Part shown: positions 3,260-35,364 of the stretch, in pieces | Layout of the letters: the number at the start of each line of letters is the position of its first letter | How positions within the stretch are numbered: position 1 is the stretch's first letter | Virus record (IMG/VR): IMGVR_UViG_3300034072_000647 | Direction: 5' to 3' (one strand) | Source: a virus | Lineage: Duplodnaviria > Heunggongvirae > Uroviricota > Caudoviricetes | Length of the DNA stretch: 36,785 bases | Notes under the pieces: model-generated | Database searches by the model: none | The model's input: only the letters and a program-made list of their open reading frames with translations | Told to the model about the DNA's origin: nothing | Program-made: the position numbers and the translations under genes

Positions 3260-5254
3260 ATGGCGCATATCTTTAAACTACTATCCCCAATCGAGAAGAT
3301 TGAAGAGGATAATGATCAGCTGAAGATCTCGGGATATGCGAGCACAGCTGATACGGACAGGGTCGGGGACGTCGTACTCCCCGACGCCTGGCTAAAGGGT
3401 GGCCTAGAGAATTTCAAGAAAAACCCAATCATCCTTTTCAACCACAACTACGGTAGACCAATCGGTAAGGCTGTAGATATTGAGGTTGATGCCATCGGTC
3501 TGAAGATCACTTGCTTAATTAGCAGGTCTGCCGGCGAGGCTTATGGGTTAATCAAAGACGGCGTGCTAACCACATTCTCAGTTGGTTTCATGATTAAAGA
3601 CGCGGATTATAACCAAGTCACCGACGGCTACATTATTAAGGAAGCGGAACTCCTAGAAGTATCTGTAGTTTCTGTTCCTTGCAACCAAGCAGCAACCTTC
3701 AGCATTGCAAAGTCATTGCAGTCTGCAGAAGATCGTGCTAATTTTAACAAAGAAGTAAATGCTCTCAAAGGCCAGCAGGAAGTTATTACCGAAGTAAATA
3801 CTCCGGACGACGACAGCTCACCTAAGAAGGATGCTAAAGAAGCATCAACGGAGATTAAAAGAATGAACCCAGAAGATATTGCTGCACTGGCTAAGCAAGT
3901 TGCTCTTGATGCTATTGCTGCTCAGGAAGAAGCTAAGGCTAAGGCTGCAAAGGACGCTGCTGAGAAGGAAGCTTCTGAGAAGGCAATTGCCGAAAAGGCA
4001 ACCATTGCTGCTCAGGCTATCGTAGAGACTCGTGAAGAAGCTCTAATGAAGGCCTTCGATGAAAAGTTAAAGGCTAATGGTGAAGACCTACAGAAGACCA
4101 TTGGCGAGCTAAAGACTGACCTTGAGGAAAAGAATGCTGAGCTGCTTAAGATGCGCGAAAGCAAGAAGATCTTCGGTGAGCGTGGCCTAGGCGACGACTG
4201 GTCTAAGAATAAGGACTTCATGCAGGACGCTGAGGACGCTTTCGTTCTTGGTAAGGTTCTAGGAAAGGGATTCTCCGACACCAAGCTTGGTAAGGAAGTA
4301 TCCGAGAAGTTCAACACACACTCTACCGTCACTGTTGGTACCGACCGTCTAGAAACGACCGTTAGCACCAATATTGAGCGCGATATCTGGAACGAGCTGA
4401 TTCTTGCTCCTCTGTTCCGTGAAATCAACATGAACAGCGCTCAGATGACGTTCCCAATCATGCCAGACGCTGGTTACGCTGAAATTACCAGCAACACCAC
4501 TGCTTCTGGTACACAGCCAAACGGTAACATGGATCAGCGTGGTGCTGGTTACGGAGCTCCTTACCAGGGTATCACCCTAACTGAGAAGATCCTAAGCACT
4601 GTCAAGATGATCAGTAAGTCCTATCTTGGTAACGAGACTGAAGAAGACGCAATTCTTCCAATTCTACCTCTTATCAAGGAGAGCATGGCTCGTTCACACG
4701 CTCGCGGTGTCGAGAATATGCTTCTTGCAGGTAATCACGTTGATGGTGTTTATACCTCCGGTGCTGCTAACGGACTTCTTAGCTTTGCTAGCACCAACGG
4801 TCGTACACTTACCACCGCTGCTACCAACACCAAGCTTACCAGCGCTGCTCTATTCGGTATGCGTAAGCTTATGGGTAAGTACGGACTTAACCCACGCGAC
4901 ATCATCTACGTTGTCTCTCAGCAGGCTTACTTCGAGCTTATCGAAGATCCAGAGTTCGCTGATATGGACCTTGTTGGCAGCCAGGCTAACAAGCTTACCG
5001 GTGAAGTCGGTCGCCTATACGGCTCCCAGGTTGTTATGTGCGACGAGTTCGCCGCTCCTGCAGCCGGCAAGTACTTCGCTCTTGCTCTTAACCGTCGCAA
5101 CTTCGTTGTTCCACGTCTTCGTGGTCTTACCGTTGAAAGCGAATATCAGGTTGAGAATCAGAGAAAGGTTCTTGTTACCAGCCAGCGCCTTGGTTTCGAC
5201 GAGATCATCCCTAACGCCACGAGCGTTGTTGGTCTCAAGTACGCAGCCAGCTAA
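3260..5254 (+). CDS. Fused HK97-type prohead protease (aa ~1-200) and T5-like major capsid protein with delta scaffold domain
   Basis: Protease motifs GYAST..DRVGD, LFNHN, FSVGF, LLEVSVVSVP, then a coiled coil, then an HK97-fold capsid region (LAPLFREINM, LYGSQVV, RLGFDEI). No stop between the parts. Confidence 0.92.
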   Translation: MAHIFKLLSPIEKIEEDNDQLKISGYASTADTDRVGDVVLPDAWLKGGLENFKKNPIILFNHNYGRPIGKAVDIEVDAIGLKITCLISRSAGEAYGLIKDGVLTTFSVGFMIKDADYNQVTDGYIIKEAELLEVSVVSVPCNQAATFSIAKSLQSAEDRANFNKEVNALKGQQEVITEVNTPDDDSSPKKDAKEASTEIKRMNPEDIAALAKQVALDAIAAQEEAKAKAAKDAAEKEASEKAIAEKATIAAQAIVETREEALMKAFDEKLKANGEDLQKTIGELKTDLEEKNAELLKMRESKKIFGERGLGDDWSKNKDFMQDAEDAFVLGKVLGKGFSDTKLGKEVSEKFNTHSTVTVGTDRLETTVSTNIERDIWNELILAPLFREINMNSAQMTFPIMPDAGYAEITSNTTASGTQPNGNMDQRGAGYGAPYQGITLTEKILSTVKMISKSYLGNETEEDAILPILPLIKESMARSHARGVENMLLAGNHVDGVYTSGAANGLLSFASTNGRTLTTAATNTKLTSAALFGMRKLMGKYGLNPRDIIYVVSQQAYFELIEDPEFADMDLVGSQANKLTGEVGRLYGSQVVMCDEFAAPAAGKYFALALNRRNFVVPRLRGLTVESEYQVENQRKVLVTSQRLGFDEIIPNATSVVGLKYAAS

Positions 5255-5261
5255 GACAAGT

Positions 5262-5292
5262 TGGGAGGGGTCCGCCCCTCCCACGGTTTTTA
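5262..5292 (+). terminator. Intrinsic terminator after the capsid gene
   Basis: TGGGAGGGG-TCCG-CCCCTCCCA (9-bp stem) followed by CGGTTTTTA. Confidence 0.8.
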
Positions 5293-7122: not shown

Positions 7123-7571
7123 CTACTAGAAGTTTTACTACTAAGAGGAATTCAATAGCTAAGTCTATTGCTGAACTACTTAAACAAATTGATGGTACTG
7201 GCTCTTACAATACAAATCTATATGAAAACGTACACCCTAAACTGCTTTTCTGGGATGAAATTTCAGAATATCCAGCCGTCCATTTAACTCCCGGCGAGGA
7301 GCTAAGAGAATACCAAGGTGGCGGGTATAAAGATCGTTATCTATATGTAACTGTCAGATGTTACGTACAAGATGATGACGCAGCGGAAGTACTAGAGGGA
7401 CTCCTAGAGGATATTGAGACTGTAATTGAAGAAAATGGCAGGTTGGCTTATCAAGATTCTCTAGGAACTACCAATTTCACTCACGATATTCGTATTGAAC
7501 GTATTAATACGGATGAGGGAGCTCTAAATCCCATAGGCGTAGGAGAAATACTACTCCAAGTTCATTATTGA
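7119..7571 (+). CDS. Tail terminator protein (T5 p142-like)
   Basis: 150 aa, YPAVHLTPGEE.REY, LLEDIETVIE, TDEG.L.P.GVGE motifs; directly before the tail tube gene. Confidence 0.75.
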   Translation: MTTRSFTTKRNSIAKSIAELLKQIDGTGSYNTNLYENVHPKLLFWDEISEYPAVHLTPGEELREYQGGGYKDRYLYVTVRCYVQDDDAAEVLEGLLEDIETVIEENGRLAYQDSLGTTNFTHDIRIERINTDEGALNPIGVGEILLQVHY

Positions 7572-29331: not shown

Positions 29332-29364
29332 AGCCCCGTAACTTGCGTTACGGGGCTATTTTTA
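29332..29364. terminator. Bidirectional intrinsic terminator between the convergent operons
   Basis: AGCCCCGTAAC-TTGC-GTTACGGGGCT (11 bp), ATTTTT to the right and an A-rich tract to the left. Confidence 0.88.
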
Positions 29365-29760
29365 TTTCAGGTCAATCTCTTCGCGAGTTTCCTTAACCGT
29401 AATTGGTATCACGTTAGTTCCAAGCCTAAACTTGATTAGAGTCTTAGCTTCTCCAGGCTCTTCCCCTTCGGGAGTAACTATAGCTTGTCTATAGATAATA
29501 CCATCCCTAGGAATAGTAATGCGTCTAGCATTAACTCCCGGAATATTCAACTCGAAATTCAACCTAGGTACTACGGATTTAATTACATCGTAGCTATTTT
29601 CTACATAAACACTGGTGATACCTTCCCCAATATCAAAGAAAATCCCACATTTAGTGTTAGGTCTATCTTCCAGCGACCCTTCCGCCACCTCTTCAAAGGC
29701 TAGAATAGACTCGGGCATGATATCTACGTAACCTTGGTTCTCAATTTTTAAACTTAACAT
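29362..29760 (-). CDS. Hypothetical protein with two tandem FlbD-like beta domains
   Basis: SD AAGGAG; both halves end in V.E(N/T)(S/R)...I and resemble each other in hydrophobic spacing. Confidence 0.45.
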   Translation of the reverse strand: MLSLKIENQGYVDIMPESILAFEEVAEGSLEDRPNTKCGIFFDIGEGITSVYVENSYDVIKSVVPRLNFELNIPGVNARRITIPRDGIIYRQAIVTPEGEEPGEAKTLIKFRLGTNVIPITVKETREEIDLK

Positions 29761-29769
29761 CGCTACTCC

Positions 29770-31734
29770 TTATTTAATAGGGCAAGCGCCTGTAGCGCAT
29801 TCTTCGCCCTGAATTTCATCAAAGCTATCGGCGTTCTCTAGATTAACTGGCAACAGTGTGGCAACATACTTTTCGTATGTTTCCTTAGAGACTACTTCCT
29901 GAGGCAAGAATAAATATCCTAAGTCAGCCGCGGTCTTAGTAGGGTCGGCCCTGTAAAGGAACGACACGCCAACGTAAATATCCCAATTATGGAGTAGCCA
30001 ATCAATAATTTCTGGAACTTCTTCGGGACTATAACTGATAGTAACCGAAGTATTCTGCTGCGTCCAGTTAGTCTGAAGAAGCTTATACTTCTCTAGCTGA
30101 TCGACAGCACTATCTAGATTAACCTCTAGACCGTTCACCTTGTGGAACGGCACGTCTTCCCATACGACCGGGAATGTGATTAGTACTGCGTCAGGGTCTG
30201 TAGGGTGATTAACTACCTTATACTTAGCTGCCTTCATCCTCTCGACAATAGGATCATGCTTACCGAAAGTAACATTATTGAAAATGTACTTACCTAACGG
30301 CTTGTGAACGCCTTCAGTAGTATCCATAATCTTGGACAGTGTTCCGCTTGGCTTAACGCAGGTAACGTTCTTAGGGTACGGTAAGCCGAGTTCCTCGGCC
30401 ATGCTAATCGCAGAAGCTGTAGCTGTACGCTTTAGATATTCGTACTCATAAGACCCCATATCCGGACGCTTAGCAATACCCGTGAGACCAACACCGCAGA
30501 GGCGTAGGAACTCATTGTTAAGGTGCCACGCTTCCTGTAGGATGCCGTCGTTAAGATTTACACAGGTCTGACGATAGTTCGCTCTAGCGGCCAATCTCGT
30601 AGCATAGTGAAGACCTGCATTATCTCCCTTAAACTTACCGAGGTCGATCTCTGTGAGATTACAGAAAGATTTGTTTCCAAGCAAGATTTCGACACAAGGA
30701 TTACATCCCTTGAACCATGGTGCTCTACGAAGCGCTTCGGCGCCATTAATGAAGCCAGGTTCTGATCCCCCCGCTTCCTGCATGAGTTGGAAGATATGCT
30801 CAAGGTCTGCACGCTCCGGCCTATCGTTAAATACTAGAGAGTTATTAGACTGGGTTCTGTGCTCATTATCGTGAAGCCAGAAATCCTTCTTAGCAATAGC
30901 GAACTCTTCCCATTCTGGCTGACCATACTCGAAAAGAGCAATTTCAGCAGAACGACGAGAACTAAGAATAGTTCCCAGCCAGTTCACAATATCCAGAATA
31001 TCCATTCTAGAGAGAAGGCTATCCGCGCGACCATTGAGAATATTAGCAATAGCTACGTAGGCCTTGCTAATTGCACCATCTCCAGAACTAATCCAGCCAT
31101 AACCCTTTAGACGTTCACCAGCAGGACGGAGTTCAGAAAAGTCCAGTACCAATGTATTGGCTGGATACTTACCTGCGATTAGCTTGCCAATGGACTTAGC
31201 CCACGCTTCGGCGCTATCACCTACGCGAATTGTCCAAGTCTTGGTATCCGCATCCCAAATCTCGGTATTTGTCTCTTTGCCGCCCTTTACAGTGCGTGTG
31301 CTGTTAATAACCTTGATATTCTTGATCGGCTTAGAAAAGCCGTTCAAAGTACCGACTACAGGCCTAAAGCCTACACCGCAACCCTGAAGAAGAAGCCACA
31401 GAACGTCAACAATATCATAAGCTGTTTCAACGTTAGTAAAGCTACAGTTAAACTGACTGGCTTCACGGTTCTTAGATACGCTGGTTCCTCCTAGCCAAAG
31501 AGTACGTCCTGACATGGAGATCTTACGAGCCAGCATCAACTGCTCTAAGTCGTAAAGCTCCGCATACTCAAGGTCTGTAAGGTCTCTACCTGCTGCTCGC
31601 TCCCAAAGCCACTCTTGGTGGCCGATAACTCTTGAGACTGTTTCCGGCCATGTCTCAAATACTTTTCCACTTTCATCGAGAGGTCTGTTGTACGTTCTAC
31701 GCGTTATAATTTGTGCTCTTGTGCTTACTGTCAT
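29770..31734 (-). CDS. nrdJ: Class II (adenosylcobalamin-dependent) ribonucleotide reductase
   Basis: FNCSF, NPCVEI, TCVKPSGT and C-terminal CATGACPIK redox pair; monomeric RTPR-type N-terminus (RRTYNRP); no intein seen. Confidence 0.92.
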   Translation of the reverse strand: MTVSTRAQIITRRTYNRPLDESGKVFETWPETVSRVIGHQEWLWERAAGRDLTDLEYAELYDLEQLMLARKISMSGRTLWLGGTSVSKNREASQFNCSFTNVETAYDIVDVLWLLLQGCGVGFRPVVGTLNGFSKPIKNIKVINSTRTVKGGKETNTEIWDADTKTWTIRVGDSAEAWAKSIGKLIAGKYPANTLVLDFSELRPAGERLKGYGWISSGDGAISKAYVAIANILNGRADSLLSRMDILDIVNWLGTILSSRRSAEIALFEYGQPEWEEFAIAKKDFWLHDNEHRTQSNNSLVFNDRPERADLEHIFQLMQEAGGSEPGFINGAEALRRAPWFKGCNPCVEILLGNKSFCNLTEIDLGKFKGDNAGLHYATRLAARANYRQTCVNLNDGILQEAWHLNNEFLRLCGVGLTGIAKRPDMGSYEYEYLKRTATASAISMAEELGLPYPKNVTCVKPSGTLSKIMDTTEGVHKPLGKYIFNNVTFGKHDPIVERMKAAKYKVVNHPTDPDAVLITFPVVWEDVPFHKVNGLEVNLDSAVDQLEKYKLLQTNWTQQNTSVTISYSPEEVPEIIDWLLHNWDIYVGVSFLYRADPTKTAADLGYLFLPQEVVSKETYEKYVATLLPVNLENADSFDEIQGEECATGACPIK

Positions 31735-31822
31735 TTGCTTCCTTTTTAGCTTGAGACTCTAGTCTCTTTAATTTCTCTTGGTATAGGCGTTCATGCTCTT
31801 CGGCACTAACTAATTTTACCAT
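31697..31822 (-). CDS. Candidate 41-aa charged helical protein (MVKLVSAEEHERLYQEKLKRLESQAKKEANDSKHKSTNYNA)
   Basis: ATG overlaps the flap-endonuclease stop (TAATG); fills the gap to nrdJ and overlaps its start by 38 nt. Not in the ORF track. Confidence 0.4.
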   Translation of the reverse strand: MVKLVSAEEHERLYQEKLKRLESQAKKEANDSKHKSTNYNA

Positions 31823-32670
31823 TATGTAAACTCCAAATCGTGTTCTCGCTTATCGTTCATGATAAGTCTGCGACCTAAATCAGCAACATTTTCTCGTCCA
31901 ATAGCTTCCTCGCAGTAAGTAAGCAAGTCCATTAGCTCATGATTCATTAAAATCTGATCGCGACACTGATTAAGGTTCTGGATGTACTTATACTTACTGT
32001 CAATAGGTATAGCATCGCAAATATCTAAAGCACTTCCGTAAGTGTCGATCAGTTGCTTAGCTTTAACAGGACCTACTCCAGGCACTCCAGGAACGTTATC
32101 GCCCTTATCGCCCATAAGGCACTTTAAGCACAGATACTGTTCCGGAGTAACATCGTAAGGCCATGTATCGAGAGTAATCTCCTGCCTAGTGACAGTACTG
32201 AAGCGGCTTACATCTTCGTTAATCAGAAGATCCCAGTCTCGGTCGGAACTGATTAGCCATATCTTCTCGAAGCCATATAGTTTTCTCTTGGCTACTATGT
32301 ATGCGGCGAGGTCGTCAGCTTCGACTCCGGGGTATCGAAGTACCAGGTACTTCTTTTCCAACGCTTCGAGTACGCGCTCATACTCGTCGAAAAATTCCTT
32401 AGACTCTTTCTTTTCCTGAGCCGTTTGAGCGTCTGCAAGCTCCTTCCGATTCTCTTTATATGCAGGGTAGATCTCTTTTCGATACGTCGAACCCTTCATA
32501 TCTGCAGCGATGATAATTTGCCCACAATCATATGACCGGGCCAGCGAACTCACCGTGCCGAGATAGTCTTGCACGAAATTTTTTGCTTTTTGGTGTTTCC
32601 AACGGAACGCGACGTTCATGGCGTCGACAATCATAACATTGGTCACGGGCATTTCTTTTACAAAAGCCAT
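31822..32670 (-). CDS. 5'-3' exonuclease/flap endonuclease (T5 D15-like)
   Basis: IVDAMNVAFR, YKENRK, GVEADD, SSDRDWD, LMGDKGDNVPGVPGVG motifs; ATG 32670 has a purine-rich SD. Confidence 0.92.
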   Translation of the reverse strand: MAFVKEMPVTNVMIVDAMNVAFRWKHQKAKNFVQDYLGTVSSLARSYDCGQIIIAADMKGSTYRKEIYPAYKENRKELADAQTAQEKKESKEFFDEYERVLEALEKKYLVLRYPGVEADDLAAYIVAKRKLYGFEKIWLISSDRDWDLLINEDVSRFSTVTRQEITLDTWPYDVTPEQYLCLKCLMGDKGDNVPGVPGVGPVKAKQLIDTYGSALDICDAIPIDSKYKYIQNLNQCRDQILMNHELMDLLTYCEEAIGRENVADLGRRLIMNDKREHDLEFT

Positions 32671-33119
32671 TTTATGCTTTCCTTTCCTAGCCACTCTTCG
32701 GCCAATATAATATAGCAGTCTAACCATGAAATGTAAATATATTTCTCAACTACATCTGGAAATATATCTGTAACTACATATATCTTAGAGCGATCGTACT
32801 TAAAGAAAAGCAGAGGGTCTTGATTACATTCGCTAGATTGCTTTTTTAATTTCTCCCACCATAAGATAAGATTATTAGTTTTGCTAGTAAAAATCTTGTC
32901 TGATAGCGGGCTTTCTTTATAGTTTTTAACTTCTATACAGAATCTGTTTGCGCTATTCGGGAGCATTAAGTCGCCTTTCATCTGGTACTTAACGTCAAGT
33001 GCCCCAGATAAGGGAGTCCTTACCCAGGGCAGCTTGGTATGCTTTATAAGCAGATCTTTTACGAGATTCTCTCCGCGCGCGCCTTTTGCTCGTGCATCAA
33101 CCAATCTCTTTTCTCCCAT
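32658..33119 (-). CDS. Holliday-junction-resolvase-like PD-(D/E)xK nuclease (T5 D14-like)
   Basis: DARAKGARGE, PLSGA, KGDL, IEVKNY, PLLFFK.DRSK motifs. The true start may be TTG at 33104. Confidence 0.8.
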   Translation of the reverse strand: MGEKRLVDARAKGARGENLVKDLLIKHTKLPWVRTPLSGALDVKYQMKGDLMLPNSANRFCIEVKNYKESPLSDKIFTSKTNNLILWWEKLKKQSSECNQDPLLFFKYDRSKIYVVTDIFPDVVEKYIYISWLDCYIILAEEWLGKESIKWLL

Positions 33120-33513
33120 GTGTTAGTGTTCTATAGCGATTTTCATTAGGTAGATACTCTCTCCATAGATGAAACCATGGTCCTCTAATAGATATTACCC
33201 AACTAGTTCCTATAGAATCTACTTTGTGAAAATCGTCTCTGTGTATAATGAACGGTTTTAAAGAGGGCTGATAGTATCTTTCTAACGTATACTCTTCGTT
33301 ATTAGGTAGTATTCTTTTATCTAATAGCTTTTCTACTAATCTACCTTTAATCAACCAATTTAAGCAGTTAAAGGCATGAGTATGGTATGCCTCCCTACTC
33401 TTACCTTCAAACTTCAACAACACTACAGAAAATAGTGATTTCAGCTCTATTAACCAATATCCGGTGACGGTGCTTTCAGCACCGCCATCCTTCATCTTTT
33501 TAAAGAATTTCAT
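33097..33513 (-). CDS. Cupin-fold putative metalloprotein
   Basis: YHTHAF...E...FHKV metal-ligand spacing; GGAGG SD precedes ATG 33513. Confidence 0.6.
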   Translation of the reverse strand: MKFFKKMKDGGAESTVTGYWLIELKSLFSVVLLKFEGKSREAYHTHAFNCLNWLIKGRLVEKLLDKRILPNNEEYTLERYYQPSLKPFIIHRDDFHKVDSIGTSWVISIRGPWFHLWREYLPNENRYRTLTHGRKEIG

Positions 33514-33515
33514 TT

Positions 33516-33566
33516 TCAACCTCCAGGAAGTTCTTCCTCAAAGGGTAGTTCAAGCTGTTCAGTCAT
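33516..33566 (-). CDS. Candidate 16-aa peptide MTEQLELPFEEELPGG with a beta-clamp-binding-like motif
   Basis: SD AGGA 6 nt before the ATG; start overlaps the end of the D13-like gene (ATGACTGA); stop lies 2 nt before the cupin ATG. Not in the ORF track. Confidence 0.5.
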   Translation of the reverse strand: MTEQLELPFEEELPGG

Positions 33567-35364
33567 GCTCAATCCTACTGATGTTATCCTCTTTGATAAC
33601 TTCAAGCTTGGTCAATAGTGGGTGACTCCAGCCGTGAGAAACAATGTAGGTATTTAGCTCTTCATTTAGAAGAACTTCCACTAGTTTTTCCCTACCTGCC
33701 TCATCAAGAACGTTGATAACTTCGTCCAAGAATAGAACATTAATTCTAGACTTAGAGATACTGCTCATTAACTTTCGCAGCGCGAGAAGAGTAGACGTGT
33801 TAACACGTGCCAACTCACCAGAAGATAGAGCAAGTATGTCAACGTTATTGCCGTTATCGGTAATATTAACATTGAGTTTGTCTGACATAACACTAAACTC
33901 AATAGTAAAGCGGCCGTCGGAGAGTTCAGCAAGATAATCGTTCGTAAGCTCTTCCAGGTCTTTCACCATGTTCTCGATCTTATAAGCGACTAAACCATTA
34001 GTACTAAACGATTTCTTAAGCAACTCTAAGTTGTTAAGATTAGCCAACTCTTTGTCGAGCTTGGCAGAGTATTCCGCCAGTTCCTCTTGGAACTTATCAG
34101 ACTGCTCTAAAAAGACATTAACTCTAGAATTGTGCTTCGCAACTTCTTGATTTTGCTGAGTTATCTTTTTCAGCTTATCTCTAGCATTAGATATTCTGAT
34201 GCTTAGATTAGAAAGTTCATCAACTAAGTCTTGCTTGTTGATTGTTGCTGAGGGCAGAGTCTTGTTGATTGAAGAAAATAACTCCTCCCATTCCTTGATA
34301 CTGTCCTGCTTATGTTTGTACCTAGAGTTATTAGACTTAATAGAGTCAATAGTCTTTTTAATTTCTTCAATTTTTGACTCCACCGATTTCAGAGATGCTT
34401 TATCTCCTTCTATTAGCTTTTGTTTGAAGTCGGGATCAATGCTTTGCTCACAAGTAGGACAAGTATCTCCTAAGCTATTAAGGTTTCTAATAGACTTAGT
34501 TATACGAAGCTTTTCCGACTCTAGTCCGCCTAGCTGAGATTGTTCGTCGTCATAGGACAAAGTAGGCTCAGCTTCGATAGCATTGATTTCTTCTATATTT
34601 ATAGCTGCCAGCAATTCTTTATACTGGTTGTTCTTATTGATAGCTCTATTGGTCTTGTCAATGTTGGTGATTTCCAAGGATAGCTTTGCTACCTCTGCTT
34701 CATCGCTTGACAAATCAAGATCATCTACGGGAATTAACTCCTTTATAGATGTGTCCTGCAGGCTATTTTGCGCTATCCATTTTTCTACTGTAGCGATCTG
34801 TCCCTGTATCTTAGATACAGTTCCTGCATGTTGCTTAACAGCTTCCTTGAACAATTCAAACAGTGCTACATACTGCTCTAACTGCAGTAGATCAATTAAG
34901 AACTTCTTGCGGTTAGTATCGGTAGCTACCAAGAATTGTAAGCTAGTGTTAGTATTCTGATATACTAGCTGAGAGAATGTCTTGAAATCTTGCCCAACAA
35001 TCTCTTCGATGGCTTTAAAGGTATTGGTAGCAGTATGACTACTGATATCTTCGCCATTTTTAATTAGTTTAACCTTTACGGTTGCTGCCTTTCGATCAAT
35101 ATGAATCTCATATTCACTATCATCTTTATCGAAAGTTAGTTTTATATTATAGCCCTTTTTAAGGTATCTATTAGGAATATCCGCCTTCTTAATACCTTTG
35201 GAGTTTTTATTAAATATTGCTTCTTCAATAATTAACGGAATGGAGGATTTCCCCATTCCGTTCAGTCCTAAGATCTGTGTAACAGTATCAGAGGTTAGAT
35301 CCAGTTTATTATTGGGGCCGTAGCTGAAACAATTACTCCACTCCAATGTCTTTAGCGTAATCAT
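33559..35364 (-). CDS. SbcC/Rad50-like recombination ATPase (T5 D13-like)
   Basis: Walker A GLNGMGKSS, zinc hook CPTC, signature LSSGE, Walker B LFLDE. Confidence 0.93.
   Translation of the reverse strand: MITLKTLEWSNCFSYGPNNKLDLTSDTVTQILGLNGMGKSSIPLIIEEAIFNKNSKGIKKADIPNRYLKKGYNIKLTFDKDDSEYEIHIDRKAATVKVKLIKNGEDISSHTATNTFKAIEEIVGQDFKTFSQLVYQNTNTSLQFLVATDTNRKKFLIDLLQLEQYVALFELFKEAVKQHAGTVSKIQGQIATVEKWIAQNSLQDTSIKELIPVDDLDLSSDEAEVAKLSLEITNIDKTNRAINKNNQYKELLAAINIEEINAIEAEPTLSYDDEQSQLGGLESEKLRITKSIRNLNSLGDTCPTCEQSIDPDFKQKLIEGDKASLKSVESKIEEIKKTIDSIKSNNSRYKHKQDSIKEWEELFSSINKTLPSATINKQDLVDELSNLSIRISNARDKLKKITQQNQEVAKHNSRVNVFLEQSDKFQEELAEYSAKLDKELANLNNLELLKKSFSTNGLVAYKIENMVKDLEELTNDYLAELSDGRFTIEFSVMSDKLNVNITDNGNNVDILALSSGELARVNTSTLLALRKLMSSISKSRINVLFLDEVINVLDEAGREKLVEVLLNEELNTYIVSHGWSHPLLTKLEVIKEDNISRIEHD

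Follow-up and report, generated by a model that had tools for sequence, protein, structure and literature searches.

A 16-codon micro-ORF (positions 33566..33516, minus strand) in an uncultured T5-like phage encodes a peptide built around the hexamer QLELPF, a clamp-binding-type motif with acidic residues on either side, and the peptide sequence is conserved by selection in related phages. The best explanation appears to be that a free 16-residue peptide is made, essentially one hexameric beta-clamp-binding motif (CBM) with acidic flanks, which would compete at the beta clamp of the host. We give this full explanation a probability of about 0.5. The stretch of phage DNA analyzed, termed the window, is 36,785 nt long.

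The micro-ORF begins with an ATG at 33566 and ends with a TGA at 33518–33516. It is identical in the sequences L090–L094, and orthologues are present in L224 and L227. An initial reading of this DNA, made from its letters only (the sequence-only reading), had quoted a 16 aa peptide at this locus; translation of the minus strand at 33566..33516 gives that peptide and then TGA, and translation of the plus strand at 33516–33566 shows no corresponding peptide. The QLELPF motif is encoded by codons 4–9 (33540..33557, minus strand). A Shine-Dalgarno-like AGGA (33573..33576, minus strand) lies 6 nt 5′ of the ATG, within the last codons of the upstream D13-like gene, as had been described. The ATG itself is within the last 8 nt of the D13-like gene, in the +1 frame (D13 stop codon 33561–33559), and the stop codon of the micro-ORF is 2 nt before the ATG of the downstream cupin gene at 33513; the overlap and the short distance had both been read correctly. 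The size of the gap between the two genes, given as 39 nt, needs correction: the D13 stop codon and the cupin ATG are 45 nt apart, and 39 nt reaches only an upstream in-frame TTG at 33519.

A GGAGG sequence (33520..33524, minus strand), probably the ribosome-binding site of the cupin gene with a 6-nt spacing, overlaps the two final Gly codons of the peptide, and L224 and L227 are alike in this respect. Because GGAGG is located there, the GG end of the peptide is probably fixed by the cupin ribosome-binding site and not by the function of the peptide.

The start codon, the Shine-Dalgarno-like sequence and in-frame purifying selection (see below) are all present, the combination by which translated small open reading frames are recognized at the sequence level. 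The micro-ORF is uncalled in every deposited copy of the phage. Two other forms of the product were considered and rejected. It is not an N-terminal extension of the cupin, since it is in a different frame and has its own stop codon. A 29 aa form starting from a TTG at 33605 displays no Shine-Dalgarno sequence, and several orthologues have an upstream stop codon in that frame. A promoter and terminator scan showed none at the D13–cupin junction, with no excess over shuffled sequences.

The upstream gene (33559..35364, minus strand) encodes a 601 aa D13-like SbcC/Rad50 ATPase (phrog_77, E-value = 1e-99) with the Rad50 zinc hook (PF04423). The downstream gene (33097..33513, minus strand) encodes a 138 aa cupin-like protein (phrog_4786, E-value = 2e-16), and is followed by a D14-like Holliday junction resolvase gene (32658..33119, minus strand). 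PHROG matches for the D14/D12/D15 block are phrog_244, phrog_100 and phrog_107. The overall gene order is polymerase A, helicase, SSB, D12 (SbcD-like), D13 (SbcC-like), micro-ORF, cupin, D14, D15, reductase, and the D14 resolvase together with D12, D13 and the D15 flap nuclease forms a T5-type recombination block. The phage genome is 115 kb and was recovered in several metagenome assemblies; the sequencing runs that match it best are subsurface metagenomes. Cultured relatives are remote, with at most 37% aa identity in D13 and 46%–48% in the polymerase.

Natural clamp-binding motifs follow the pattern Q-phi-x-[L/M]-[F/L] or Q-phi-x-[L/M]-x-[F/L]; the tightest binders are QLxLF and QLxLxF, and the flanks are mostly acidic (PMC11139829). 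QLELPF fits the hexameric CBM definition and has the high-affinity QLxLxF form. It resembles the hexameric CBMs Hda QLSLPL, Pol IV QLVLGL and Pol III alpha QVELEF (PMC11139829) in Q at position 1, an aliphatic residue at 2, Leu/Met at 4, Phe/Leu at 6 and the acidic flanks, but these known motifs are tethers on enzymes and regulators, whereas here the motif is the entire product of a phage gene. The 16 aa peptide contains five Glu and no Lys or Arg and is too short for a fold; in longer carriers the motif is terminal.

Seven variants are found in 13 other phages: QLELPF, QLRLPF, QLWLPM, QLWLPL, QLEMEF, QLEMDF and QLELGL. Across these unlike carriers Q1, L2, [LM]4 and a hydrophobic residue at position 6 are fixed, and positions 3 and 5 vary. 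The commonest variant has Met at position 6, which is outside the published F/L/I set, and it retains in addition DYTQ, for which the clamp pocket offers no explanation. For E. coli beta, affinities of 0.44 and 0.39 uM have been measured with the Hda QLSLPL and Pol IV QLVLGL peptides; binding of hexamers to the B. subtilis clamp is 10–20-fold weaker (bioRxiv 10.64898/2026.05.27.728225). Thus the affinity of the phage peptide would depend on the host.

QLxLP[FLM] occurs once in the 73,566 six-frame codons of the window. When the 45-nt gap is shuffled, a clamp-type hexamer or pentamer appears in 0.5% of 20,000 trials, a figure that is post hoc. Support beyond chance rests chiefly on recurrence of the motif in relatives that were fetched blind.

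Junctions were gathered by way of cupin homologues, which gave 14 distinct D13–cupin junctions besides that of the window; retrieval was blind to the motif with the exception of L100, picked on a hint in a called N-terminus. A small open reading frame with QLx[LM]x[FLM] is present in 12 of the 14, and in the last round of blind retrieval all four junctions had it. Direct orthologues with QLELPF are found in L224 (18 aa) and L227 (15 aa). Seven sequences (L001, L095, L100, L102, L104, L105 and L226) encode peptides of 26–32 aa with QLWLP[ML]DYTQ. The remaining three have longer carriers: L225 has a 63 aa Zn-ribbon open reading frame with QLRLPF at its end, L126 has a 47 aa open reading frame with QLEMDF close to its end, and L106 has two tandem open reading frames (44 and 49 aa) terminating in QLEMEF and QLELGL. 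In L141, which was found by pattern, the peptide is retained and fused to an apparent cupin tail. The sequence-only reading had proposed that loss of the motif where the short open reading frame persists would count against its function; across the junctions the motif is kept wherever that open reading frame is found.

The two junctions without the motif are L096, with an unrelated 35 aa open reading frame instead, and L110, which has no gap, D13 and cupin being coupled directly by an ATGA overlap. Absence from these two phages indicates that the peptide is dispensable. In a D13 tree, from which L110, L126 and L142 were omitted as partial or distant, the 13 motif-bearing rows cluster with moderate support (89/89) and L096 is outside the cluster. 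D13 identity to the window is ~64%–82% among relatives, and the D13 proteins of the phages with the three bare 15–18 aa versions are 71%–82% identical. Since the carriers are kin, they count as a single trait of the clade rather than 13 separate events; that the motif sits in different carriers in L106 and L225 is more telling than the number of junctions.

The peptide is absent from more distant D13 junctions (>100 loci, mostly cupin-less), a few unrelated open reading frames aside, and is thus limited to this clade. A tblastn search of cultured phages with the 31 aa and 49 aa relatives gave no real match, and a homologue search with the 44 aa and 49 aa carriers yielded self-matches and one match to a repeat protein. 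The cultured Demerecviridae pVp-1 and VspSw_1 have no called micro-ORF at the junction; in pVp-1 a 97-codon hypothetical gene occupies the slot, and in VspSw_1 D13 overlaps D14 directly.

Other small genes are found in the same slot. A sister group (L007, L008 and L009) has small Zn-ribbon genes, free of the motif and unrelated to the peptide, which follow the D13 stop codon and start at the same −8 position. The Zn ribbon of L225 (positions 2313–2504) looks like such a slot gene fused to the peptide. In distant T5-like phages a 62–66 aa open reading frame is present in the D13–D14 interval (L035, positions 5094–5282; also L038, L047, L041 and L032), whose N-terminal part has QLEFNF, QVKLQL or QTQLQL and whose C-terminal part has a hydrophobic stretch. 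These may possibly represent a membrane-anchored clamp-type motif.

Differences among the copies are concentrated in synonymous positions. In the seven QLWLP[ML] copies the numbers of variable columns at codon positions 1, 2 and 3 are 1, 0 and 9. Pairwise codon differences, which are not independent counts, are 88 synonymous vs 10 non-synonymous in the frame of the peptide, and 5/87 and 18/74 in the other two forward frames. The motif codons of the three QLELPF copies display nine synonymous differences and no non-synonymous ones. In addition, close strains represented in three sequencing runs from three other studies (X5, X9 and X13) have lost most of the cupin gene and kept the peptide, and the sole listed change in the peptide of these strains is synonymous. 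In X5 and X13, 665 other bases replace the 3′ end of D13 together with the first two codons of the peptide, and the start is outside view. The synonymous bias and the survival in these strains indicate that the peptide sequence is under selection that is independent of the integrity of either neighbor.

The peptide was modeled in complex with E. coli beta as a stand-in for the host clamp, using a 30 aa construct that includes 14 upstream in-frame residues. The model has a score of 0.86, as compared with 0.01 for the best of three controls; the score mark is reached by 51 of 78 solved pairs and by 2 of 108 mismatched pairs. Model runs share at least 69% of contacts and the partner pLDDT is at least 58. 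The Gln is placed at M362/M364/N320/H175 and Leu4 at T172/G174/L177/V360/P242, which are the canonical subsites I and II. The pass is probably owed to the many solved beta–CBM complexes, so that the model displays likeness and not binding.

Overall, the peptide probably binds the clamp; whether it acts as a free competitor for the clamp pocket we rate as an even chance. In the proposed mechanism, coupling to D13, suggested by the overlap, would let the peptide be produced alongside the products of the recombination and replication genes, and it is predicted to bind the host beta clamp in the pocket where partner proteins dock. Having no other domain to deliver, it would be a competitor. Access could then be lowered for the clamp loader and host Pol III, TLS polymerases, MutS/L, Hda and ligase, while the phage uses its own Pol A. 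An unstructured 16-mer is probably short-lived, and competition would need high levels.

A minimal phage-encoded clamp competitor that could block host replication or repair had been proposed from the sequence. Conservation of the micro-ORF and the fit of the hexamer to the consensus are in favor of the competitor; the idea that it blocks host replication is weakened by an A1 homologue in a 99% complete relative (41% identity to T5 A1, E-value = 1e-95). A1 is annotated in the T5 record as involved in host DNA degradation. Since a relative in the clade encodes this homologue, something else probably halts host replication at an earlier stage, and there is therefore no obvious need for the peptide to block it. 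The likelier benefit would be that host clamp-dependent machinery is kept off phage forks, nicks and recombination intermediates, and we rank protection of phage DNA in this way above shut-off of the host chromosome.

An open reading frame in this position could merely serve to couple D13 and the gene after it in translation, in which case its sequence would be immaterial. It overlaps the D13 stop codon, fills the gap exactly and holds the cupin Shine-Dalgarno sequence in its final codons, all in accordance with such a role, but the motif shows synonymous variation only and is kept in carriers of 15–63 aa, and L110 couples D13 to the cupin with no spacer. The sequence-only reading had allowed for coupling as the sole function; selection at the codon level is not explained by it. 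Being under protein-level selection, the peptide is therefore more than a coupling spacer, and the coupling-only explanation appears largely refuted and is very improbable. Somewhat less so, though still improbable, is a +1 ribosomal frameshift at the D13 stop codon, by which a fraction of D13 (SbcC) would acquire a C-terminal clamp-binding tail. This would agree with the motif being always in the +1 frame directly after the D13 stop codon, and with the lack of an ATG at −8 in L100 and L104. However, these two have upstream ATGs behind AAGGA and GGAGG, and most copies have ATG or GTG with a Shine-Dalgarno sequence at −8, a start shared with the unrelated genes of L007–L009. No conserved slippery site is present across the stop codons TGA, TAA and TAG, the second L106 open reading frame is not beside D13, and the 665 other bases in X5 and X13 part the peptide from D13.

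Other explanations accept the motif as selected. Its target may be a different one, such as a pocket protein of the phage itself (a truncated clamp, for example), some protease or adaptor, or a further host hub that recognizes Q-L-x-L-P-hydrophobic. Two features of most relatives, the Met at position 6 and the conserved DYTQ that extends the motif, point in this direction, as does the terminal EQLELPF[DE] of many small proteins, which indicates a general docking tag, whatever its partner. Against this, the fixed and variable positions follow the CBM rule one by one, and the complete relative G001 (99% complete) matches none of the three DnaN domains, so that a phage-encoded clamp is not an obvious partner (the search for a clamp-like gene in the source phage itself covered ~47 of 115 kb). 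We consider a different partner unlikely. More doubtful is a peptide that binds the clamp and does not block it, either as a shrunken remnant or minimal form of CBM-tagged platform users like MuC, or as a modulator of clamp loading or turnover for the phage. Longer carriers with the motif in their tails are found in the same slot (L225, 63 aa; L106, 44 and 49 aa; L126, 47 aa), and MuC recruits the clamp through CBMs for transcription (PMC12867686); yet there are three bare 15–18 aa versions with synonymous-only change in the motif and no second recruiting surface, and a dead remnant would not display such selection.

A mimic of the SSB C-terminal tail was also considered and rejected. That tail is defined by a stretch of acidic residues and a final Pro-Phe whose C-terminal carboxylate is free. 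In the micro-ORF product the Phe is residue 9 of 16 and is not terminal, and the variants ending in PM, EF, DF and GL have no PF.

Several agents that act on the clamp are known. SocB is a clamp-targeting toxin of a chromosomal toxin–antitoxin system and griselimycin is a clamp pocket inhibitor. Natural pocket inhibitors and synthetic CBM peptides compete for the same pocket as that predicted here, but they are non-ribosomal or synthetic, and the phage micro-peptide would be a ribosomal product of a replication operon. MuC of phage Mu, a member of the Mor/MuC family, has terminal CBMs that bind host DnaN, and its overexpression is toxic through that binding (PMC12867686). A phage-borne CBM for host DnaN is thus a shared feature (PMC12867686), predicted in the case of the peptide; however, MuC is a folded, DNA-binding activator of transcription that has pentameric motifs and makes use of the clamp, and the peptide, with its hexameric motif and no effector domain, is not of the MuC type. 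Gp168 of Twort, a small staphylococcal phage protein, inhibits the host beta clamp by plugging the DNA channel and not the peptide pocket (PMC8565349). The micro-ORF product is not of this type either, as Gp168 is a folded channel plug and the peptide is a 16 aa linear motif modeled in the pocket, with no relation in sequence or motif. RipA, a clamp-targeting toxin of S. pneumoniae, acts on the clamp and leads to replication stress (PMC12795458), but unlike the phage micro-peptide it belongs to a chromosomal toxin–antitoxin system. No stand-alone phage CBM peptide was found in the searchable literature, which most subscription papers are outside of.

As a hub, the beta-clamp pocket is conserved, and it is also a target for antibiotics. 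If the proposed role is correct, a stand-alone selected motif would be a third mode beside the Gp168 channel plug and the MuC tether, with a panel of variants supplied by evolution, and the question of why T5-type phages with their own polymerase engage the host clamp would become a concrete one. It would also show that functional genes of fewer than 20 codons sit unannotated within phage core operons.

The motif is also found outside the T5-like phages. In IMG/VR, 114 stretches contain DNA for EQL(or F)EL(or F)PF[DE], as compared with 8 that contain a scrambled pattern of equal composition. Among distinct contexts of the heptamer, 48 of 65 are at most 12 residues from an ATG or a stop codon (2 of 6 for the controls), and these are mostly small proteins. 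Many unrelated small viral proteins (L228–L341) bear EQLELPF[DE] at one terminus, N or C, and a large family of ~104–126 aa is among them. One example is a 14 aa micro-ORF in an unrelated GC-rich phage (L307, positions 7437–7481), which consists of QLELPF and an acidic tail. It has an 8-nt overlap with the stop codon of a probable holin gene and carries the Shine-Dalgarno sequence of the next gene, the same layout as that of the window peptide. The motif is thus a tag often placed at the ends of small viral proteins, with the window open reading frame as its barest form. More tentatively, T5-like and other phages may encode free CBM-only micro-peptides of 14–18 residues as natural inhibitors that compete for the beta-clamp pocket, which could be the smallest form of a widespread and overlooked strategy located in gaps skipped by gene callers.

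The neighboring cupin has 525 homologues, found in unrelated neighborhoods in jumbo and other phages (L086–L089, L002–L005), and its PHROG label is “cysteine dioxygenase”; no cupin relatives were found in the genome contigs searched. The cupin gene is mobile, and it is also dispensable, since close strains have lost it and retained the peptide. The deletion in X5, X9 and X13 (window positions 33116–33484) is in frame and removes most of the cupin, and the 15-codon remnant still overlaps the start of D14. The exchange of the D13 3′ end for 665 other bases in X5 and X13 (window positions 33561–33627) might be a homing-endonuclease-type insertion, although this is a guess.

Two open reading frames near the reductase gene, one of 41 aa in the D15–reductase interval (31697–31822, minus strand) and one of 132 aa after the reductase (29362–29760, minus strand), have no PHROG or Pfam match. 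The reductase itself, located after D15 (29770–31734), is probably a class II (B12) ribonucleotide reductase. In L141 and L225 apparent class I reductase subunits are present at that position instead.
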